Positions 36,138 to 50,662 are shown, counted from the first letter of the stretch. The stretch is DNA of 64,000 bases from a virus (IMGVR_UViG_3300021091_000012), one strand, 5' to 3'. Notes: generated by a model not told the origin, from the letters alone. Program-made: numbers and translations.

Positions 36138-36818
36138 CTACGCTTGCTTAAGCAACTTTAATAAAGCACCGCGATTAATCCATCTAGATTTTGCGGTTCT
36201 GTTGGCTTCTGTGATTATATTTGACTGTGCTTGAAGAGCTTGTATTGTAGTGTCTGGCAGTCCTTGTTCCTTTATTACGCCACTAGATGGAGCAAACTGA
36301 GTAGACGTATGCTCATCATCAAAGAATGGAATTTGAAACTTGCGTCCTTTTACTTTAGTATAATAGTCGTCAGCATTATTCATATTAATAAAAACGTCTC
36401 TTTGCGCTAAAACCTGCCCATATCGATTGTCTGTGTATATTAAACTGAAAGTCATACCATCATATGTTTTGCCACCTTTAGTATCTGTAAGCTTTTCACC
36501 AAAGATTATAGACTCTTGACTAAATTGTTTTCCTAATTCTAGAGCTTCTTTTTTGGTTATATTTGGAATAAAAAAAGAATTTTCTGGACCACCATAGTGT
36601 CCTTTTACCTTCTTAAAGCCCAAATTCATTACACGTAATCGCTTTTCTAGCTCATTGTTTGCTTGTTTATTTGTAGCTGTGTCTGCGGCTTGTCCGTTTG
36701 GGTTTTCTGCTGTGAGGAAAGCTAGTGTTTGTACAGTAGGAACTAGTCCGCGCATAATATTAACTACACGAGCATATCCTGCTTCATTAAGTATCTGTTT
36801 AAGTTTTAAATTATTCAT
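36138..36818 (-). CDS. DUF3293-like hypothetical protein
   Basis: FLTAENP, GHYGGPENSFFI, LGKQFSQESI. Confidence 0.65.
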   Translation of the reverse strand: MNNLKLKQILNEAGYARVVNIMRGLVPTVQTLAFLTAENPNGQAADTATNKQANNELEKRLRVMNLGFKKVKGHYGGPENSFFIPNITKKEALELGKQFSQESIIFGEKLTDTKGGKTYDGMTFSLIYTDNRYGQVLAQRDVFINMNNADDYYTKVKGRKFQIPFFDDEHTSTQFAPSSGVIKEQGLPDTTIQALQAQSNIITEANRTAKSRWINRGALLKLLKQA

Positions 36819-36829
36819 GTTAATTATAA

Positions 36830-39070
36830 TTATTGATGTCCTTCTCCAAAATTATCCGCAATGTTTGGCTCTGCTACTAGTCCAGTTGCTATTTGTACAG
36901 TATTCTCCATACATTCTTTTGTGATAGCACAAGCTCTCTGTGCATGTTCTGCTTTGGCGTTAATCACAAACTCGTCGTGAATCTGCAACATGATACATGC
37001 ATCTAGTCCTTCTTCCTTAAAGCGCTTGTGAATTTGTATTGCTGATCTATTCATAATGGATGCTGCTAGAGATTGTATTTGAAAGTTCTTACAGTTGTTA
37101 AGACCATTCTTGTACTCCATACGAAGCTTCATTAGCTGTTGAGTTTGTTCGGGTGTCTTGGCCATTCGCTTCATTTGAGAAAACGGACCTGGTTCAATAA
37201 GACTGTTCTCAAACTTCTCGTAGATTCTCTTTACTCGATCTAAGTGACGAATACGTCCAGTTTGGTTTTTAACATATCCAAACGTCTGAGCTTTAAGATG
37301 ACTATCGCTCATCCACTTTGCCAATTCAGGGAAACCTTCTAAGTATCCATCGATCATCTTCTGTGCTTCTCTAATCTCGATATTGAGCGATTGACCAATT
37401 TGCCACGCACCTGCTCCATAAGGAATAGCAAGTGCAATACTTTTTGCTCTTTGTCTAAGCTCTGGTCGCAAGTTCTTAACATAGTTGTCATCACTTTTTT
37501 TTGCCGACATGCCTCTAAGCTTAAACGCTTGAATAGCCACTCTACAATATAAATCCTCATTGTTGATAAATACGTTAATCAAATTTGGGTCATTACTTAC
37601 TGATGCGAACACTCGAGGCTCCAAAGACGACTGATCACAGATAATAAACTTTCTACCATCCTCAGCTTTCAAAAAGCTACGAATAATGTTGTTGTATCTA
37701 AGTACTAACTCACTTTGCTCTCCTTCTTCCAACACACGAGGTAGCTGTTGGCAGTCGGAGCTAAAACGACCTGAGGTAGTTCCATGTTGTTTGAAGTACC
37801 AGTAATATCTTCCGTCTTCATTTCCGTCTAGGAAACGATCGACGTATGCAGATTGTATCTTGTTGAGTTTGTTGTAGTCTCTTAGTTTAGCAGCCCAAGC
37901 ATGGTCTTTATGTATATGTTCGATGAAGTCATCGTCAAACTGATCTGTTCCTTTCTTTGTTTGGCTAATAGGCTTTATGCCCATATATTTAAAACACATC
38001 TCAGAAAGCTGTTGCTTACTACTAATATTGATGAATGCACCTTCTTTTTGCTTAAGGAGCTCAAGACTAATAGCAATCTTATCTTGATCATTAAGGTCCT
38101 TATCATCTCCTGTCTGCAAAAACTTCTGTCCAGCAGCTGGATCAATAAGCTGTGGTAGCTTCTCTTCAATTAGCTTTCCGTAATGTCCTCTTTTCTTTGG
38201 AGGATGGTTTGTTAATGCCTTAGCTACAACCCACTGTTGCACTTGACCATTCTTCATTAAGTCCGAAATGATTTCTTGCTCAAGTCTTAGAATATTTGCG
38301 TTGATGTCTTTCTTTGTTTTCTCGATTAGTGGAATATCTAACTCTGTACCGGTCTCTTCCATTTGTATAGTTACCGTCTTGTAGAGTGGCATCACCTCAT
38401 CGTTGAAAAAGAAATCCCACAATCCCTGCTCTTTAAGTACTGGCAGGTAGTATGTCATAACTCGAAGTGTCAAATCGGTATCTGCTGCTGCGTACTCTCC
38501 TAACAAGCTCATATTTGCTTTAAAAATTTCAAAGTTGGTCTTTGTAATACTACCACCATTCCTTTGAATAGACTCTTTTAGTTTTACTTGCTCTTCGTTA
38601 GCTTCTTTCTCAGCATCTAGTCCTAATTCATTTTGAATCTCAATAGCAATGTCTTTCAAACCAAAAGGACCATCCTCTTGTAGAGTATGGCGTAGTAACA
38701 TCGTATCACAATACAGATCATCTCGCAAATCAACACCATAAAAGTTTTTAGTGTACCGGACGTCAAACGAGGCGTTATGCATTACTAGCTTTTTGCCTTT
38801 TAGCATGTTGATAAGTTGGCGTGCAATGTCGTCGCACTTCTTGCCACCAATATAAGAATCTATAAGCGATTGACTATCAACATCCCAATATCTAGTTGGA
38901 AAGTAATAACCTTCTCCAATATCTGCAGAAACAGAAAAACCAATGATCATTCCATTTCTTGGATTAACACTAGTCGTCTCAGTATCGTATGCGATAATGT
39001 TTCCGTTCTTAATATAGTTGGCCAGCTCTACGACACCAGCTTCGTCGGTTATGATTTTATATTTTTTCAT
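36830..39070 (-). CDS. polA: family A DNA polymerase (3'-5' exonuclease plus polymerase)
   Basis: ExoI YDTETT, ExoII HNASFD, ExoIII YAAADT; TTSGRFSS; motif A CDQSSLEPR; motif B RQRAKSIALAIPYG; motif C IHDE. Confidence 0.96.
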   Translation of the reverse strand: MKKYKIITDEAGVVELANYIKNGNIIAYDTETTSVNPRNGMIIGFSVSADIGEGYYFPTRYWDVDSQSLIDSYIGGKKCDDIARQLINMLKGKKLVMHNASFDVRYTKNFYGVDLRDDLYCDTMLLRHTLQEDGPFGLKDIAIEIQNELGLDAEKEANEEQVKLKESIQRNGGSITKTNFEIFKANMSLLGEYAAADTDLTLRVMTYYLPVLKEQGLWDFFFNDEVMPLYKTVTIQMEETGTELDIPLIEKTKKDINANILRLEQEIISDLMKNGQVQQWVVAKALTNHPPKKRGHYGKLIEEKLPQLIDPAAGQKFLQTGDDKDLNDQDKIAISLELLKQKEGAFINISSKQQLSEMCFKYMGIKPISQTKKGTDQFDDDFIEHIHKDHAWAAKLRDYNKLNKIQSAYVDRFLDGNEDGRYYWYFKQHGTTSGRFSSDCQQLPRVLEEGEQSELVLRYNNIIRSFLKAEDGRKFIICDQSSLEPRVFASVSNDPNLINVFINNEDLYCRVAIQAFKLRGMSAKKSDDNYVKNLRPELRQRAKSIALAIPYGAGAWQIGQSLNIEIREAQKMIDGYLEGFPELAKWMSDSHLKAQTFGYVKNQTGRIRHLDRVKRIYEKFENSLIEPGPFSQMKRMAKTPEQTQQLMKLRMEYKNGLNNCKNFQIQSLAASIMNRSAIQIHKRFKEEGLDACIMLQIHDEFVINAKAEHAQRACAITKECMENTVQIATGLVAEPNIADNFGEGHQ

Positions 39071-40542: not shown

Positions 40543-40573
40543 AAAAAAAAAAGCCAACTTTTTTTAGTTGGCT
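40543..40573 (-). terminator. intrinsic terminator closing the deazaguanine operon
   Basis: AGCCAACT/AGTTGGCT stem followed by a long U-tract. Confidence 0.75.
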
Positions 40574-40594
40574 CTTATTGTCTGGGAGGCGTGT

Positions 40595-41419
40595 TTATAT
40601 AATTGTTATTGGTCGATGGCATTGTGAGCTGAGAAAGGCAACATTGCTCTTTACAAGATCCATATCAATATTGCTCATGTCGTAAGTCTCCAAAAAGCTA
40701 TGTGGAGTTGGGATACGAGTAGTATGGTCTACACTAAAGTCCTGTCCATGTGCAGCTGCTAGTACTGGGAACACTGAGTCAGTGCTTCGTATCATTGGAT
40801 GATCGTAGTATGCAAATTCAGTTGGATCTCCTTGACCTAGGCAGTGGATTGGCTTCTTGAGCATGTCTCTTTCCTTCAAATAATCATATGCTGCATGACG
40901 AGCTTCTTTAATGTATTGATCATCTTGATAAGTTCTAAGGTTGCTGAAGTGATCATCTGACATCCATGCACTCGGAATTGCAATCTTAGAGAATCCGATT
41001 ACATCAATCCAATCTTGATTAATACCCCACTCATAGGCTTCCAACCAATCCTCCTTAGTTTTACCTTGAGGACAGAAAAAGAGGTCTATGTGAAAAAGAT
41101 CAGACAACCCTTCTGCTCGCAGTCTTTCTCTAAAAGAGATGGCGTTAGCAATTGTAGCGTCCTTATCAAATAAAACATCTGGTGCAATTACTTCATCAGG
41201 TAACAACTCCTTGCAGATATCTATTAAAACGTCCTCAGTAACCAAAGCTCTTTCTGCTGCTGAGTTATCTAATGTGATCCAATAACCCTCTTCTTTGCGA
41301 GCTTTAATGAACTCTCGGTACTCAGGAAACTGCACCCATAAGTGAGCCAATGCAAAGATTCGATCTCCCAGCTTCATTGGCTCTAAGTTGCTAACTGGTG
41401 ATATAACGTAAAAATCCAT
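40595..41419 (-). CDS. dpdA: TGT/DpdA-like guanine transglycosylase
   Basis: TIM-barrel-like motifs ITLDNSAAE (cf. DSGAF), APDV, PQG, IHCLG, IRSTDS; adjacent to folE2/queD/queE. Symbol inferred from motifs plus context. Confidence 0.7.
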   Translation of the reverse strand: MDFYVISPVSNLEPMKLGDRIFALAHLWVQFPEYREFIKARKEEGYWITLDNSAAERALVTEDVLIDICKELLPDEVIAPDVLFDKDATIANAISFRERLRAEGLSDLFHIDLFFCPQGKTKEDWLEAYEWGINQDWIDVIGFSKIAIPSAWMSDDHFSNLRTYQDDQYIKEARHAAYDYLKERDMLKKPIHCLGQGDPTEFAYYDHPMIRSTDSVFPVLAAAHGQDFSVDHTTRIPTPHSFLETYDMSNIDMDLVKSNVAFLSSQCHRPITII

Positions 41420-41437
41420 TACTTATTGTGTATTTTT

Positions 41438-42439
41438 TTAACAAACTAAACTTCTATAAACTTCTACAGGAACATCAGATGTTAAGCCACCCTCAACTCC
41501 CTTCACAATAACCGATATAGCATCGTGTGAGTGTAGCGATTCCAAATGTGAACATATCACTTTAAAGTCTAAAACCCTTGAGTGTTCATCTAATCTCTGA
41601 TGTAACAGTCTAGCAGCATCCTCAACAAACTTCAGATTTGCACCATTTAGTTCAGCAAAAGCCTGCTCATCCTCACGTTTAACCATTACTTGTGTTTCTG
41701 TCTGTAAAGCTTCAATACATAGGTCTCTCACATCCTCAATCCAAATCATATCGTCAAACTCTATTGTAATTCGTGTTTTTGATCGTTGAGAGTGTGATAC
41801 AACTGCCTTATTGCGCTCCTCCATCGCTTGCATAGCCAGCTCAAAGCTGCAAGGACATGCTGATGAATATACAAAATCGAAGTGTAGGTATTTCTTGAGA
41901 TCACCGTTTTGTTTGTGATGAGCTTCTAACGATACGTTATAGTATTGGTAACCAGATAGACCACTTCTCAGTGAGTTTTGGATTATTGGAAATGAGAAGT
42001 TTAATATAATGTGTGCATCATATGATCCTAATTTCTCTTTGTACGATTTTAATACAGTCTCTAGTAAATCAATCGAGAACGTATTATCTTTGTATTCATA
42101 GAATGTTCTCATAATTCTTGACATGTTAATGCCCTTCTTCTCAGCCTCTAATGATACAGTTCCCGTTACAGAAGTCTCTAACTCGATCTCTCCGCCTTCC
42201 TTTAATTTATACTTAATAGGAAGTCTGAAATTATGAATACCTACTTGTTGTATTTTTACATGCGAACCTTGTATGTTAGAGGATGGTCCATTTTGTAAAT
42301 CGTGCAATGTACACACATACTCTTCATTGGATTTGAAATCCTTATCATACGATCTGTCTAGTTTGTTAGAAAGTGAATTAGGATTGTCTTTGTATGGGAT
42401 ACCGCAATCGTCTCCCAACCACTCGTAGTTTCCTGCCAT
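41438..42439 (-). CDS. folE2: GTP cyclohydrolase I type B
   Basis: IQQVGI, KGINMSR, SSACPCS, HSQRS, VKREDEQAFA, FVEDAAR, HLESLHSHDA. Confidence 0.95.
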   Translation of the reverse strand: MAGNYEWLGDDCGIPYKDNPNSLSNKLDRSYDKDFKSNEEYVCTLHDLQNGPSSNIQGSHVKIQQVGIHNFRLPIKYKLKEGGEIELETSVTGTVSLEAEKKGINMSRIMRTFYEYKDNTFSIDLLETVLKSYKEKLGSYDAHIILNFSFPIIQNSLRSGLSGYQYYNVSLEAHHKQNGDLKKYLHFDFVYSSACPCSFELAMQAMEERNKAVVSHSQRSKTRITIEFDDMIWIEDVRDLCIEALQTETQVMVKREDEQAFAELNGANLKFVEDAARLLHQRLDEHSRVLDFKVICSHLESLHSHDAISVIVKGVEGGLTSDVPVEVYRSLVC

Positions 42440-42457
42440 AGTTGTTTTTTTGCTTTA

Positions 42458-42937
42458 TTAATAGTTGTGTATAATTTGTAACCTTTCTTCGAATATATTA
42501 AAAATCTTTTGACATTCCAACTCGATTGGCATATTGTCTGCTAAATCGAAAGGCTCAACGTCTTTTTCTGCATTGCGTGTTTCGTATCGTCGTTTACGTG
42601 TTTCGGTAGGAACTTCTATCCATATTAGTTCGCTTTTTGGATAATACTCCAGCACTTTTTCAACAATACTAGCTTGTCGGATCCCGTCAACAATAATTGT
42701 TTTTCTTTCAATGAGATTTTTTTCTATTGCTGTTGTTAATGCATCTAAGCAGCTAATAATCTCTTCAGCAATTCGCTCATCCAAATGCATTGTTTGTTGT
42801 AGTTTGTTGCGATCTTTGCTTTGTATTAAATCGCGAACAATATTAGATACCACTATACGATAGCTAGTAGTGTCATTAAAGGACGACTTTCCGCTACATA
42901 TTCGTCCAAACAAAAAAAGTATATCTGATTTTTTCAT
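42458..42937 (-). CDS. P-loop nucleoside-monophosphate kinase-like protein
   Basis: GRICSGKS, IIVDGIR, IEVP.E.RKRR..R lid; start reassigned (ATGA overlap). Confidence 0.75.
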   Translation of the reverse strand: MKKSDILFLFGRICSGKSSFNDTTSYRIVVSNIVRDLIQSKDRNKLQQTMHLDERIAEEIISCLDALTTAIEKNLIERKTIIVDGIRQASIVEKVLEYYPKSELIWIEVPTETRKRRYETRNAEKDVEPFDLADNMPIELECQKIFNIFEERLQIIHNY

Positions 42938-43275
42938 AACTCTACTATACCAAAAAATTCTCCATCTTCCGACACTGAGCATCGACAAAGTCCAAAGTAA
43001 TTTAATAAATCTTCTGCTATCATTTCACAAGACATAGCTCCAAAGTTGCAGCAACCGTAGGCTGGATCGTACCAAGTGCTTGCAATATATTTCTTGATCT
43101 TGTGCTTGAAGTCAATGAACTCAATATCACGATCACCATGACTTACCTCTGCTCTACAAACAATCTGAAAGGTGTGTCTATGTAGATGTGCTAAATAATC
43201 TACGTGTGGCAAGTTGCAATCTGGCCAGTGATGCAATCCTTCTACATCTATTCTTATTTCTACAAACTTCTTCAT
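42934..43275 (-). CDS. dpdL: QueD paralog (T-fold), DpdL-like CDG decarboxylase
   Basis: EGLHHWP, LAHLHRHTF (LxxxHRHxF instead of QueD CxxxHGH), DRDIEF, SCEMIA, VSEDGE. Confidence 0.72.
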   Translation of the reverse strand: MKKFVEIRIDVEGLHHWPDCNLPHVDYLAHLHRHTFQIVCRAEVSHGDRDIEFIDFKHKIKKYIASTWYDPAYGCCNFGAMSCEMIAEDLLNYFGLCRCSVSEDGEFFGIVEL

Positions 43276-43757
43276 TACTTCTTATCTTTATCTTTTTGCC
43301 ATTGACCATCGTACAAATCCGCTGGAGTATTCTCTAGCATGATTATCTGAGCTACTCGTGCTCCTTTCTCAATGTGCATTTTATTGTTAACAAACATAAC
43401 TCCACCCATCTCATCTACTTCAAATCCTGGATCATAAACTCCAGATGTGATGATTGCTCCACAGCGTAGAATGGATGATCTGTGTCGAATAAATGCCGTC
43501 CTATTCTCAGGAAGCTTGCAGCCTTGATCGAACGTCAACGAATATACTCCCGGCTCGAGTGTAAAGATATATTTACCGGTTGGTGATAGGGTTGGTTGAA
43601 CTAGCTCGTAATCTTCTACGACGGTTTTGTCTTTGAGGACCATGCCTCCATAAACCCTATTGACTGCTTTTAGTGTGAGGTCGTAACCTACTTGAGCTTT
43701 TGCTCCTTTGTTATTTGTCTGTAGCAACTCGGCTACTTGATCTGCGTTTAATAACAT
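43275..43757 (-). CDS. dCTP deaminase/dUTPase family protein
   Basis: GYDLT, RSSILRCG, GVYDPGF, GARVAQ, YDGQWQ. Confidence 0.85.
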   Translation of the reverse strand: MLLNADQVAELLQTNNKGAKAQVGYDLTLKAVNRVYGGMVLKDKTVVEDYELVQPTLSPTGKYIFTLEPGVYSLTFDQGCKLPENRTAFIRHRSSILRCGAIITSGVYDPGFEVDEMGGVMFVNNKMHIEKGARVAQIIMLENTPADLYDGQWQKDKDKK

Positions 43758-43881
43758 AACTTCTGATTGATTTTAAATTAATATATGATAAGCTTTCGTA
43801 ATTTGCAACTACTAAATCTAGTAAGTCTAGGTGGCCTACATTGTCTGGGCATAGGCCTATAATATGTAACAGTTCGTGCAT
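43711..43881 (-). CDS. small hypothetical protein (MHELLHIIGLCPD...)
   Basis: Starts just after the queE stop; overlaps the next gene by ~47 nt. Confidence 0.4.
   Translation of the reverse strand: MHELLHIIGLCPDNVGHLDLLDLVVANYESLSYINLKSIRSYVIKRRSSSRVATDK
43777..43808 (-). promoter_or_regulatory. sigma70-like promoter for the dcd/dut-dpdL-kinase-folE2-dpdA unit
   Basis: TTG-N20-TATATTAAT. Confidence 0.55.
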
Positions 43882-43882
43882 G

Positions 43883-44659
43883 CTAAACTCCTCTCTTTGT
43901 ATCGTAAGCAATAATATGATCTCGTCCAGTCATGTTGTAACCCTTTTCAGCACACATCTCAAAAACAATAGGATACATCTTGATAAGCTCTTCTCTTGTA
44001 TCGCCAGCTGGCATAATATACGTCTTTTCTTTTGGAATCAAAAGCTCTAGTCTAAAATTTTCTATTTCTTTAAGATTGGATTCTGTACCATCCCATACCG
44101 GCTTGTAGTGATAATCTGAATGGTAGGTCAATGTTTCTTTTATTGCTGATATGTTTAACCTAAACTTGTTATGCTGCGCAACCATCCTTTCATCCGTAAT
44201 CGTGCCTTGCGGCGTAGGAGTACCCACAACGGGAACGCTATTGCTAAACTTAGGACTAAGACTGATAAGCCCAATAGGATAATCGGTAGCAATAAAATGC
44301 GAGCCCTCAGTTTCAATTGTGATAAGAATGTCTTTTTCATGTGCAAAATGGGTTAGCTCGTTTACTAATGCTGGATGCATTGTAGGTGATCCACCAGTAA
44401 GCATCATCTCCTTAACGTGTGGATTCTCGTCATATATCCTTATGATATCATTAAACGTGAAGGTCCCCTTCTCTGGATGAATACTAGTGTACCAGCTGTC
44501 GCACCATCCTCCTTCTCCAAAGAAGCATCTGTGAGTGCATCCGGTTGTTCGTACTGCGATTGTTGGTCGGCCAAATCTTGACCCTTCTGATTGTACACAT
44601 CGATAGAGTTCAACTATCGGTAGTATTTTATTGTAATCTGTAACTCTTCCTGGTTTCAT
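43883..44659 (-). CDS. queE: 7-carboxy-7-deazaguanine synthase (radical SAM)
   Basis: VQSEG, RTTGCTHRC...WCDS, LTGGSP, IETEG, SLSPK. Confidence 0.93.
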   Translation of the reverse strand: MKPGRVTDYNKILPIVELYRCVQSEGSRFGRPTIAVRTTGCTHRCFFGEGGWCDSWYTSIHPEKGTFTFNDIIRIYDENPHVKEMMLTGGSPTMHPALVNELTHFAHEKDILITIETEGSHFIATDYPIGLISLSPKFSNSVPVVGTPTPQGTITDERMVAQHNKFRLNISAIKETLTYHSDYHYKPVWDGTESNLKEIENFRLELLIPKEKTYIMPAGDTREELIKMYPIVFEMCAEKGYNMTGRDHIIAYDTKRGV

Positions 44660-44660
44660 A

Positions 44661-44894
44661 TTAAAAAGGTAAATCGTCGTCTAAGATTTCTTGAACTGTT
44701 TGATTTGGTTTTTTAAAGTACTCATCCAAAAAAGTTGCTGGATACTTTAAAACTAAACCTGAGTAATTTGGATTCTCAACTTCGTGTGATGTTGCCCTTA
44801 TTCCCTTAGCTTTTGCAGCGGCATAAACTTCTTTTCCTAGTTTGGAACCAGCAGGTTTGCCAAGGTACTCGTACAGTGATAAATAGTTTTCCAT
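44661..44894 (-). CDS. hypothetical protein ending DDDLPF
   Basis: SLYEYLGKPAG; SSB-like acidic tail. Confidence 0.7.
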   Translation of the reverse strand: MENYLSLYEYLGKPAGSKLGKEVYAAAKAKGIRATSHEVENPNYSGLVLKYPATFLDEYFKKPNQTVQEILDDDLPF

Positions 44895-44961: not shown

Positions 44962-45438
44962 TTATTCTTCATAGATACTTGAGTTTTTATCGTTTTCAAA
45001 ACATTCAACTTTAATGCACTTGCAACGTCCTGCATCTGTTTTAGACAACACGTCGTTGAATTTATCGTACACTAGCTTTGCACAAGACTCTGCTCCCATC
45101 TTCTCCATGAAGTGAACTTTAGCAAGTCCCATCTGGCCTAGCTGTTCAAATATATCTGCATACGGATCATCCTTTTGAATTAGTAAAGTGTGATCCCACA
45201 TATGATCCATCCACGACTTTAAGCCGTTGCCTACTGGAGCATCTTTGAAACCTCCATAGTCCACAATCCAATTCATATCATCTAGTTGATTTTCTTCTAG
45301 TGGTTCGTTGGATGCAAACCAAACTTTAAACTTTAGAGCATATCCGTGTAGCAATTCACAATGTGAGTGTGATGCTTTCCATTGACGGATTGCAACTGAG
45401 TAATTGTCAAATAACTTTGTTGAAATGTATCTACCCAT
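44962..45438 (-). CDS. queD: 6-carboxy-5,6,7,8-tetrahydropterin synthase
   Basis: SHCELLHGY, WIVDYGG, WDHT, GAE, ECFEND. Confidence 0.93.
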   Translation of the reverse strand: MGRYISTKLFDNYSVAIRQWKASHSHCELLHGYALKFKVWFASNEPLEENQLDDMNWIVDYGGFKDAPVGNGLKSWMDHMWDHTLLIQKDDPYADIFEQLGQMGLAKVHFMEKMGAESCAKLVYDKFNDVLSKTDAGRCKCIKVECFENDKNSSIYEE

Positions 45439-46255: not shown

Positions 46256-46287
46256 TTAAATATACTAAAAAAGGCTTACATTTGCAA
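46256..46287 (-). promoter_or_regulatory. sigma70-like promoter overlapping a terminator hairpin
   Basis: TTG-N20-TATATTTAA; AAGGCTT/AAGCCTT stem with U-tract at 46266-46294. Confidence 0.6.
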
Positions 46288-48805: not shown

Positions 48806-50662
48806 TTATACTATTTCACATGCACCACCTGCACAAGCTGCTTCTCCTTTAAGGTTGGTAGTGTCATCAAGTTCAACAACTTTACTCAAATCTACGTCCT
48901 TCAAAGAGTCCATCATTCTATTATAAGTATCTTCGTCAATGTCTTCAAATGGTGCTTGAATGTAGGTTCCTCCGTTATATGGTAGTACAGACAAACCGTT
49001 GTAGTGTTCGCGGTTATTCCACATCCACTCACCAGCTAGATCCCACTCATCCTCTTTCAGAGATACTGTAGCTGATACGTTGTGTGAGTTGTTACCCGAC
49101 CTATGTCCTGGTTTAACCCACTCCAAGTGTACTCTCTTGATTCGCTCTAATAAAGCAAAAGGAGATTCTGTACGTAAGATCGCGCCTTCGGGTGCTTTCT
49201 GTGGAATAGAGATTACTGCAGTATCGTGTGGACGGAAGTACTCATCCTCAACAAGCTCAGGGTGATTAATTGATAGGTATGTGTAGATTGCTTCATTCTT
49301 TCCTACTCGGATTCTACGAATGTAGAAATCGTTATGCCAAGCGTGGATACCTGACGAAGTGCCCAATGTAAGTGATGTTGTTCCTGCCGGCTTAACAGTC
49401 GTAGCTCTTGCAGACTTGTTGATACCAATAAGCTCAGCCACTCTAGCATTTTCATCCTTAACAACCTTCGCGGCTGCTTTCATATCATATCCCAACACTG
49501 TACCTGATCCGATACCAGTCATTGAAACTCCAATCAAAGCATCTTTTTCAGTTGTTCTTTTCCACACATCTCTCAAGTAATGGAAATCTGTATAACCTGC
49601 TTGAAGTGTTCCAATGAACGCAGCAGCACGTACTCTACTTTCGAAGTCTTGTTGATCTACAATGTCCGACACATTAACCTCGCAGAGGTTACAGAACTGG
49701 AAAGGTCGTAGTGCAATCTCACAGCATGGATTAGTTCCCCAATCTTTATCGTTTGTTAGGTAGATTCCTGGTTCACCTGCTCCTGATAATTCAACACGCT
49801 TCCAAAGATCCATGAAGAACTCCTTGGTAAGTTTGTGTCTCATTAACACAGCTGAGTTATTTGCTCTACCTCTTTGTGCGTTTTGCTCCCACCAGTTACC
49901 TGACTTACAAGAAATCATCTCCTCATCGTCAGCACTAAACAAGCTAATAAGAGCTGCTCTGCGAATACCACCGGCCAATACTGCATCCGCAATATGACAT
50001 ACCATGTCGTGTACTTCAATTGATGATAGTTTATCTCCATCTTCTTTTGAGTCTAAAATTCCTTGTAATTTTATTAAACATTCTTTTAGTGGCTGAGGAC
50101 CTGGTGCTTTCCCTCCTGACGTCACTAGACGTGCACCTTTTGGTCGAATGTCACTAAAATCAAACTCTAATCGAGATCCTCCAGTGAAGTAAGACTTAAT
50201 ACAATACTTAACTGCATCTGCCCATCCTTCAATAGAGTCCGCTATCAAGTAGCGTCTTTTTCTTTTTGAGACCGGTTTACGGATCTCAGGTAATCTTTCT
50301 ACGTGATGTGTTTGCACTGAGTAACCAACTCCTGTTCCTCCTAACAATAAAAACATAGCTTCGCCAAAAGCACGAACATCGTCGATTGGTAGGTAAGCAC
50401 AGTTGTAAATTCTATTAGGTGAGATCTCGACTGGCTTTCCAGCAAACTGCATACTGCGCATTGAAGGTAAAACCTTCTTACCATACACAAACTGGTAGAC
50501 GTCTTCGATTTCTTTTGCCAATTGTGGATACTTTCGAATGTGCATTTCTTTGTTTCTTATAACTAATTCCTGCCAAGTTTCTCTTCTTTGCAGTTTGGGT
50601 AAGTACTTTGCGTACTTCATAAAGACAGTGATCTCGCTTAGGATTTCATTCGAAAGTGTCAT
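48806..50662 (-). CDS. nrdJ: class II (B12-dependent) ribonucleotide reductase
   Basis: PSMRSMQ, YNCA, GGTGVG, GGIRRAA, TNPCCEI, CNL, TVKPAGT, C-terminal CAGGAC. Confidence 0.92.
   Translation of the reverse strand: MTLSNEILSEITVFMKYAKYLPKLQRRETWQELVIRNKEMHIRKYPQLAKEIEDVYQFVYGKKVLPSMRSMQFAGKPVEISPNRIYNCAYLPIDDVRAFGEAMFLLLGGTGVGYSVQTHHVERLPEIRKPVSKRKRRYLIADSIEGWADAVKYCIKSYFTGGSRLEFDFSDIRPKGARLVTSGGKAPGPQPLKECLIKLQGILDSKEDGDKLSSIEVHDMVCHIADAVLAGGIRRAALISLFSADDEEMISCKSGNWWEQNAQRGRANNSAVLMRHKLTKEFFMDLWKRVELSGAGEPGIYLTNDKDWGTNPCCEIALRPFQFCNLCEVNVSDIVDQQDFESRVRAAAFIGTLQAGYTDFHYLRDVWKRTTEKDALIGVSMTGIGSGTVLGYDMKAAAKVVKDENARVAELIGINKSARATTVKPAGTTSLTLGTSSGIHAWHNDFYIRRIRVGKNEAIYTYLSINHPELVEDEYFRPHDTAVISIPQKAPEGAILRTESPFALLERIKRVHLEWVKPGHRSGNNSHNVSATVSLKEDEWDLAGEWMWNNREHYNGLSVLPYNGGTYIQAPFEDIDEDTYNRMMDSLKDVDLSKVVELDDTTNLKGEAACAGGACEIV

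Follow-up and report, generated by a model that had tools for sequence, protein, structure and literature searches.

A phiST-type 7-deazaguanine cluster in a viral sequence couples a DpdA3-family protein to a candidate nucleotide kinase and dNTP pyrophosphatase and may act before replication

The DNA of Cellulophaga phage phiST contains 302,000 residues of 2'-deoxy-7-deazaguanosine (dDG) per 10^6 nucleotides, and dG is undetectable in it (PMC10516641). The phiST dDG cluster encodes FolE, QueD, QueE, a MazG-like protein (CGPG_00068), DpdL (CGPG_00067), CGPG_00066, and the transglycosylase DpdA3 (CGPG_00065); CGPG_00066 was treated as unrelated, and post-replicative insertion of the base was proposed (PMC10516641). 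All DpdA3 phages tested, namely phiST, immuto, and CP220, show 100% replacement (PMC10516641). For Campylobacter phages, a route through a modified dGTP had been proposed in 2019 (PMC6884629), and this proposal was dropped once DpdA3 was found (PMC10516641). Herein, we analyzed the viral sequence IMGVR_UViG_3300021091_000012, whose whole stretch of 64,000 nucleotides is called the window, and describe a cluster on its minus strand that contains genes for a DpdA3-type transglycosylase, DpdL, a nucleoside monophosphate (NMP) kinase-fold protein, and a Dcd/Dut-like candidate deoxynucleoside triphosphate (dNTP) pyrophosphatase (dNTPase). The gene set and the local order (dNTPase, DpdL, kinase, DpdA3) are those of phiST, and both lack QueC. 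Unlike phiST, which uses MazG, the window has a dNTPase of the trimeric Dcd/Dut type; FolE2 takes the place of FolE, its gene lying between those of the kinase and DpdA3; and the phage is much larger, its close relatives measuring ~160 kb. The locus is a new phiST-type dDG cluster with two swaps, Dcd/Dut for MazG and FolE2 for FolE. Its best explanation, in our judgment slightly better than an even chance, is a pre-replicative module resembling the 5-hydroxymethylcytosine (hmC) pathway of T4, for which the gene identities, folds, catalytic residues, coupling, and conservation of the module are shown and every substrate is inferred. We are more tentative, and stop just short of an even chance, about the stronger claim that DpdA3 does not modify DNA and would be the first TGT-fold transglycosylase acting on a free deoxynucleotide, served by a dGTP pyrophosphatase and a 7-deaza-dGMP kinase, each dedicated to the pathway.

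An earlier interpretation of the nucleotide sequence (hereafter the sequence-only reading) had suggested that the modified G is made in the nucleotide pool with the help of a kinase kept beside the dpd genes. From 157 fetched loci, in which open reading frames (ORFs) were called and classified with seed proteins, 70 distinct DpdA3 loci with adequate flanks were counted. A kinase gene lay within 4.5 kb in 65 of the 70, bearing out the suggested association; a dNTP pyrophosphatase gene was found within the same distance in 65, and both were present in 60. The window-like clade (16 loci) had the kinase in 16 and the dNTPase in 15, the phiST-like clade (2 loci) had both in 2, the immuto-like clade (44 loci) had each in 43, the T4-like metagenomic clade (5 loci) had the kinase in 1 and the dNTPase in 5, and the Campylobacter clade (3 loci) had the kinase in 3 and the dNTPase in 0.

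Among named phages, the local order is MazG, DpdL, the kinase CGPG_00066, and DpdA3 in phiST and Dut, DpdL, kinase, and DpdA3 in Chryseobacterium phage MA9V-3. In Bacillus phage BSTP10, a P-loop protein annotated as 'putative thymidylate kinase', with no significant Pfam match, overlaps DpdA3, and in Campylobacter phages IBB_35 and CP220-like, DpdA3 is followed by an AAA_28 kinase. The order in Flavobacterium phage immuto is phosphoribosyltransferase (PRTase), FolE, PRA-PH-type NTP pyrophosphatase, DpdA3, DpdN, AAA_28 kinase, and QueF, and that in Aeromonas phage Ahp1 and Vibrio phage D479 is DpdL, DpdA3, a T4 gp1-family deoxynucleoside monophosphate (dNMP) kinase (DNMK), and a Dcd/Dut-like protein. 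The kinases that accompany DpdA3 in unrelated phages come from at least three families (AAA_18, AAA_28, and T4 gp1-like), and the pyrophosphatases have two unrelated folds, the trimeric Dcd/Dut fold and the all-alpha MazG/PRA-PH-type fold. This repeated non-orthologous displacement of kinase and dNTPase at the same position is the persuasive observation. We found no description of the DpdA3-kinase-dNTPase module or of the fusions reported below in the literature searched, and the word 'kinase' is absent from PMC10516641. A search for IMG/VR loci with the BSTP10 DpdA3 returned none.

Fusions join the same functions in single proteins. DpdL-kinase fusions were found in three viral contigs (L044, 304 aa; L045, 322 aa; and L041), and the 408-aa protein P0175 is a DpdA3-kinase fusion, in which the kinase hidden Markov model (HMM) matches residues 267-394 at 8e-15; the gene order on its contig is DCD/dUTPase, QueC, AAA_28 kinase, the DpdA3-kinase fusion, FolE, QueE, and QueD. 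Other long DpdA3 homologues were considered as kinase fusions and rejected, as they mostly carry LAGLIDADG homing endonuclease or intein insertions, and only P0175 is a true fusion. Paralogues point in the same direction. At other places in its genome, Ahp1 encodes a canonical, full-length gp1 DNMK scoring 167.8 bits and a canonical dUTPase scoring 85 bits, in addition to divergent copies of both beside DpdA3, and D479 has a second, canonical dUTPase besides the DpdA3-linked copy. The presence of canonical copies elsewhere in these two genomes indicates that the DpdA3-linked copies are not the housekeeping enzymes.

Loci of other DpdA types served as controls. In seven 9g-type DpdA1 loci (82 ORFs), no dUTPase, DCD, or MazG occurred among the 25 of 30 families listed, and the sole AAA_28 protein among the listed families belonged to a set containing a PnuC-like nicotinamide mononucleotide transporter as well. 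The cluster of phage 9g itself has no kinase. In the host-matched control, Cellulophaga phage phi3ST:2, a ParB-like gene overlaps DpdA, with no kinase or dNTPase gene nearby; in phiSM, a relative of phi3ST:2, ~1% of G is modified. The DpdAs of actinophages (Mycobacterium and Rhodococcus) also adjoin ParB-like (DpdB-like) proteins, and the pairing in phi3ST:2 and the actinophages fits the bacterial DNA-modifying DpdA/DpdB pair. The phi3ST:2 ParB-like protein gave no tblastn match in the window. There is a dichotomy, in which the DpdAs of the DpdA1 type, of phi3ST:2, and of actinophages occur either singly or beside a ParB-like protein, and DpdA3 occurs with an NMP kinase and a dNTPase.

The window DpdA3 (274 aa; 40595..41419, minus strand, as are all genes of the cluster; phrog_20335, 3e-50; no Pfam match) shares 40% identity with the founding DpdA3, phiST CGPG_00065, over 89% of the protein (E 3e-48), 44% with a protein of MA9V-3, and 28% with that of IBB_35. 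Its AlphaFold model (predicted local distance difference test score, pLDDT, 94) is a TGT-type (beta/alpha)8 barrel, and the fold search with this model gave a tie at Z ~17 among bacterial TGT, archaeal TGT (ArcTGT), and the DNA preQ0 insertase DpdA 7ui4 (16.7). The TGT/DpdA family has three invariant Asp residues acting as nucleophile, general acid/base, and base-binding residue (PMC10164549). D51, D81, and D214, which are invariant in 54 diverse DpdA3 homologues, correspond to these three. By homology and fold the protein belongs to the DpdA3 subfamily. Insertion of 7-deazaguanine into DNA by base exchange is the activity after which the family is named, but the gene neighborhood argues that a nucleotide may be the substrate instead. 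Two features were tried as indicators of the substrate and rejected. Isoelectric point (pI) and net charge, taken as a proxy for DNA binding, did not discriminate the acidic DpdA3 proteins (pI 4.76 in the window, family median 5.8) from the DNA-acting 9g-type DpdA1 (5.1-6.3). Likewise, 54 of 54 DpdA3 proteins lack both the Zn site (CxCxxC...H) and Ins8, a large insertion that binds DNA or tRNA, and so do 9g DpdA1 and the phi3ST:2 DpdA.

Invasion by homing endonucleases and inteins is a typical feature of essential phage genes for replication and nucleotide metabolism. The DpdA3 homologues P0123, P0125, P0186, and P0181 are invaded by LAGLIDADG homing endonucleases or HNH-domain inteins, and the QueE of L041 carries an intein. 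In Rhizobium phage RHph_I1_18, which has both DpdA3 and Dut, the C-terminus of DpdA3 carries a fused DUF3310 (SaV-like) domain (L179:8059-9327). In T4-like metagenomic loci, a separate small DUF3310 ORF lies between DpdA3 and the Dut-like gene (L131:5813-6202; L140:5842-6126), at the position occupied by the kinase in other phages.

The P-loop protein (42458..42937; Walker A GRICSGKS; Pfam AAA_18) is homologous to phiST CGPG_00066, with 32% identity. Across 33 homologues, the Walker A motif is conserved, a DGIRQ motif is near-invariant, R43, R87, and R117 are invariant, and R114 and R121 are near-invariant; R114, R117, and R121 form a LID-like arginine cluster. A direct phmmer search of the PDB with the protein gave only noise, and the family profile matched the AMP-bound adenylate-kinase-like structure 3lw7 at 1e-7. 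The top folds for its model (pLDDT 89) were UMP-CMP kinase, adenylate kinase 1 (AK1), and 3lw7 (E ~4e-7), with thymidylate kinase lower and dephospho-CoA kinase only at rank 29. As modeled, the protein has the fold of an NMP kinase and not that of the ParB-like DpdB, and we propose that it may serve as a 7-deaza-dGMP kinase.

The Dcd/Dut-superfamily protein (43275..43757) matched Pfam DCD at 3.1e-12 (47.3 bits, cut-off 27) and Pfam dUTPase at 1.7e-6 (28.3 bits, cut-off 22), and its best match in the PDB was 9w59, a probable archaeal-type dUTPase (2.3e-9). In the HMMER alignment, the catalytic Glu of dCTP deaminase 4xjc (...ITLELFN...) is paired with a Val (...GGVMFVN...); lacking this Glu, the protein looks like a hydrolase, that is, a dNTP-to-dNMP pyrophosphatase, and not like a deaminase. 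Its scores were below the dUTPase equivalog cut-offs (88.8 versus 130 bits for NF002598; 16.7 versus 102.55 bits for TIGR00576). The role that we propose for it is conversion of dGTP to dGMP.

DpdL is defined by the motif LxxxHRHxF, which replaces the QueD signature CxxxHGH (PMC10516641). The DpdL of the window (42934..43275; phrog_17812, 3e-21), a QueD paralogue and proposed decarboxylase of 7-carboxy-7-deazaguanine (CDG), has this signature as LAHLHRHTF, is 37.5% identical to phiST DpdL, and matches the PTPS-related model TIGR03112 weakly (0.0015). QueC was found neither in the window nor in any of four complete relatives (96-100% complete). By its gene content, the locus belongs with the QueC-less clusters for 7-deazaguanine modification of DNA that are typified by Cellulophaga phiST, and by analogy with phiST the predicted product in DNA is 2'-deoxy-7-deazaguanosine. 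A role in boosting tRNA queuosine was rejected, because without QueC there is no preQ0 and the sister phages have fully modified DNA. FolE2 (GTP cyclohydrolase IB; 41438..42439), assigned to the first reaction starting from GTP, was identified by Pfam GCHY-1 (4.8e-70) and NCBIfam NF010200 (274 bits, cut-off 215). The close relatives L009-L039 all carry FolE of type IA where the window has FolE2, which is a non-orthologous displacement inside the operon. FolE2 also occurs in some immuto-like loci (L075 and L090) and in T4-like metagenomic loci.

DpdL homologues were also seen without a clear DpdA3 nearby, in Acidovorax phage ACP17 (L178), Synechococcus phage BUCT-ZZ01 (L180), and Pseudomonas PA5oct-like jumbo phages. 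Two large unannotated ORFs flank DpdL in ACP17 and BUCT-ZZ01, and ACP17 gp123 (424 aa) matches the DpdA3 HMM weakly (5.6e-6). The DpdL of MA9V-3 is the C-terminal third of an annotated 293-aa protein, whose N-terminal 186 residues (L003:4647-5204) are Cys-rich, have no Pfam match, and are possibly an HNH-like insertion.

In the scheme that we favor, FolE2, QueD, and QueE would convert GTP to CDG, as their families suggest, and DpdL would strip the carboxyl group at the level of the free base or of the nucleotide. Speculatively, the DpdL-kinase fusions and the ATGA overlap of the two genes suggest that DpdL may work immediately before the kinase with a CDG nucleotide as its substrate; Cui et al. 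proposed the free base (PMC10516641). The Dut-like enzyme would hydrolyze dGTP to dGMP, thereby removing the competitor and supplying the substrate. On a free deoxynucleotide, which is most likely dGMP, DpdA3 would replace guanine with the 7-deazaguanine base, and the guanine set free could be recycled by the PRTases of many sister clusters to GMP and GTP, the precursor of the pathway itself. The kinase would form the diphosphate and the host NDP kinase the triphosphate, and the phage DNA polymerase, presumed to be PolA, would incorporate the triphosphate, giving complete replacement of G. It is well known that 7-deaza-dGTP is a polymerase substrate. Triads of this kind carry out pre-replicative base replacement in T4 (the dCTPase gp56, the dCMP hydroxymethylase gp42, and the dNMP kinase gp1), in SPO1 with 5-hydroxymethyluracil (hmU), and in S-2L, where MazZ feeds dGMP to PurZ. 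We favor this scheme because the classic way of replacing a base before replication groups an enzyme that alters the base with a dNTP pyrophosphatase and a dedicated dNMP kinase. The nucleotide-pool route put forward in the sequence-only reading is therefore partly retained: the conserved kinase, the fusions, the paralogues, and the control loci speak for it, and its promoter and five-gene unit were wrong in detail.

Several points weigh against the pre-replicative scheme. To our knowledge, all characterized TGT/DpdA enzymes act on polynucleotides, and none that works on nucleotides is known to us. In large phages, genes of nucleotide metabolism tend to be grouped in any event. The counted loci are phylogenetically clustered and represent roughly a dozen independent lineages, not 70. 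An adjacent kinase is absent in 4 of the 5 T4-like metagenomic loci and in RHph_I1_18, and no dNTPase was found within 5 kb of DpdA3 in the Campylobacter phages. The Dut gene of the cluster is the sole PF00692 (dUTPase-family) gene in four complete relatives, and Bacteroides phages that have no DpdA3 carry a homologue with 35% identity; the Dut-like gene may be an ordinary dUTPase. Neither pI nor loss of the Zn site and Ins8 separates DpdA3 from the DNA-acting phage DpdA1. Moreover, Cui et al. 2023 hold DpdA3 to be post-replicative (PMC10516641). In that published view, DpdA3 is a highly efficient transglycosylase working on replicated DNA, and the kinase and Dut are a generic nucleotide supply in the same early operon. 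It draws support from the polynucleotide-acting relatives, whose Asp triad DpdA3 retains, from the DpdA3 loci without an adjacent kinase, and from the distribution of the Dut gene. We nevertheless consider it unlikely, as it gives the DpdL-kinase and DpdA3-kinase fusions no role and leaves unexplained the extra divergent DNMK and Dut copies beside the Ahp1 DpdA3, the repeated non-orthologous replacement of both partners, and the absence of these partners from the DpdA1-type and phi3ST:2 clusters. DNA modification by any DpdA3 has never been shown, and heterologous tests in Escherichia coli failed (PMC10516641). If the pre-replicative scheme holds, DpdA3, alone or together with DpdL, may have failed in E. 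coli because the partner enzymes had been left out. In the literature searched, there was no DpdA3 paper after 2023 and none proposing transglycosylation at the nucleotide level.

A pre-replicative route might also run at another level, with DpdA3 acting on the deoxynucleoside or on dGTP, or with a PRTase making a ribonucleotide that passes through the kinase and a class II ribonucleotide reductase (RNR) while DpdA3 plays a secondary part, for example by proofreading G left in DNA. The P0175 contig encodes two kinases, the AAA_28 kinases are similar to nucleoside kinases of the NadR type, and PMC10516641 cites a report of the ADG nucleoside in CP220-infected cells. For the ribonucleotide version, a class II RNR gene is present at 48806-50662, and type I PRTases occur in 38 of 44 immuto-like loci, in 4 of 5 T4-like loci, and in L044 and L045. 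The window itself has no PRTase, however, RNA would also be loaded with 7-deazaguanine, and salvage of released guanine to GTP explains the PRTases equally well. Routes at these other levels appear rather improbable. The PRTases seen were HGPRT/XGPRT-like (L001:6725-7120; L044:3043-3558; L131:1764-2267; L180:1447-1908) and recurred in both DpdA3 and DpdL clusters across several clades. Since bacterial DpdA needs ATP hydrolysis by DpdB (PMC10164549), and the kinase-like protein is tightly coupled and even fused to DpdA3, this protein might instead be an ATPase cofactor for DpdA3 on DNA, analogous to DpdB, and not a kinase. We regard this as very improbable. DpdB is ParB-like, whereas the window protein folds like an NMP kinase, carries arginines of the NMP-binding and LID types, and lacks a DNA-binding domain; T4-like phages substitute a gp1-type dNMP kinase for it; genuine ParB-like partners accompany the phi3ST:2 and actinophage DpdAs, and none was found in the window; and the dNTPase would be left unexplained.

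All genes between 40.5 and 45.5 kb are on the minus strand, as determined by ORF calling in the window, and family searches and sequence inspection gave the order QueD, orf77, QueE, a small ORF, Dut, DpdL, kinase, FolE2, and DpdA3, followed by a terminator. Packing is tight, the widest gap in the array from QueD to DpdA3 being 67 nt. The QueD-like 6-carboxytetrahydropterin synthase gene (44962..45438) matched Pfam PTPS (2.3e-11) and phrog_2389, QueD-like (5.5e-32). It is followed by a 77-aa ORF (44661..44894), which has same-position homologues in relatives (45-74% identity) and gave no match in a family search, and by QueE, the radical SAM 7-carboxy-7-deazaguanine synthase (43883..44659; phrog_2076, QueE-like, 6.4e-48; NCBIfam QueE models), which has 77% nucleotide identity to the QueE of immuto. 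The array closes with an intrinsic terminator (40549..40576; 11-bp stem, 6-nt loop, and T run).

The sequence-only reading had presented the last five genes, dcd/dut, dpdL, the NMP-kinase-like gene, folE2, and the dpdA-like gene, as one transcription unit between a promoter at 43777-43808 and a terminator near 40543-40573. Family matches and motifs confirmed all five genes on the minus strand, a strong intrinsic terminator was found at 40576-40549, and both of the overlaps cited for translational coupling, TAATG between Dut and DpdL and ATGA between DpdL and the kinase, are present in the sequence, the kinase ORF beginning at the ATG of the latter. The promoter did not hold up. The sigma-70-like hexamers at 43808-43780 (minus strand) match at 9 of 12 positions, and sites of this 9/12 type numbered 22 in the region against 26.5 expected from shuffles, indicating a chance-level match; the site also falls within a coding small ORF, and a sigma-70 promoter was rejected on both grounds. 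This ORF of 56 aa (MHELLHIIGLCPDNVGH..., 43711..43881, minus strand) starts at 43881, 2 nt past the QueE stop, ends at 43711, and shares 47 nt with the beginning of the Dut gene. It is conserved in five relatives: alignment of the QueE-Dut spacer across L015, L036, L020, L027, and L034 revealed a codon-like substitution pattern, and the consensus of the small protein is MHE(L/V/I)LH(I/F)IG(L/I)CPD.... The window ORF begins with MHELLH (HExxH-like), and Cys and His residues are conserved. Because the proposed promoter lies inside this conserved ORF, the unit runs upstream at least to QueE, so the five genes are not a self-contained operon and stand as the distal part of a longer array, which probably reaches QueD or beyond.

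The same hexamer pair (TTGCAA, 17 nt, TATATT) occurs at 46259-46287 (minus strand), within the short gap upstream of small ORFs preceding QueD. This pair, which is statistically unremarkable, could be the real start of the unit. For the shared GTTGCAAAT...CGAAA motif, no repeat was found within the window.

A putative family A DNA polymerase (PolA; 746-aa ORF, 36830..39070, minus strand) lies 1.5 kb downstream of the array, and the DpdA3 clusters of immuto and BSTP10 also adjoin PolA. Upstream of the array are genes for the class II RNR already mentioned, a DnaB-type helicase, a flap endonuclease (FEN), a RecA-like protein, and a gp32-like single-stranded DNA-binding protein (SSB). These replication genes upstream and PolA downstream place the cluster within the replication module of a large phage; the close relatives are 157-166 kb with terminal repeats and are 96-100% complete. 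The ORF beside PolA (36138-36818, minus strand) matches DUF3293 (3e-14) and, weakly, an S-adenosylmethionine (SAM) lyase family (1e-4), and judging from these matches may encode an anti-restriction SAM lyase.

Where C, T, or A is completely replaced, synthesis of the modified nucleotide precedes replication. The field currently assumes post-replicative exchange for G even at 100% replacement, and the triad and the fusions provide a concrete, cheaply testable alternative. The pre-replicative scheme would explain why 100% replacement is seen only with DpdA3. If true, base exchange on a nucleotide would be a new enzymatic activity, and the cluster would define a minimal set of genes for producing, in vivo, 7-deaza-dGTP and DNA fully substituted with 7-deaza-G, with uses in restriction-resistant DNA and in sequencing and PCR reagents.

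Compared with known systems, the locus resembles the T4 hmC pathway, SPO1 hmU, and the MazZ/PurZ/DatZ system of S-2L in combining a dNTPase, a base-altering enzyme that would act at the dNMP level, and a dNMP kinase with complete replacement, which would likewise be expected here. In Ahp1 and D479 the partners are gp1-family and Dcd/Dut-family proteins. Unlike in T4 and S-2L, the base-altering enzyme is predicted to be a TGT-fold exchanger of the whole base and is not thymidylate-synthase-like or PurA-like. The TGT TIM barrel, the three Asp residues, and the supply of bases from FolE, QueD, and QueE are shared with bacterial DpdA/DpdB and with phage DpdA1 and DpdA2. Those enzymes modify 0.1-30% of G, at motifs, in finished DNA (PMC10164549, PMC6884629), whereas DpdA3 goes with 100% replacement.

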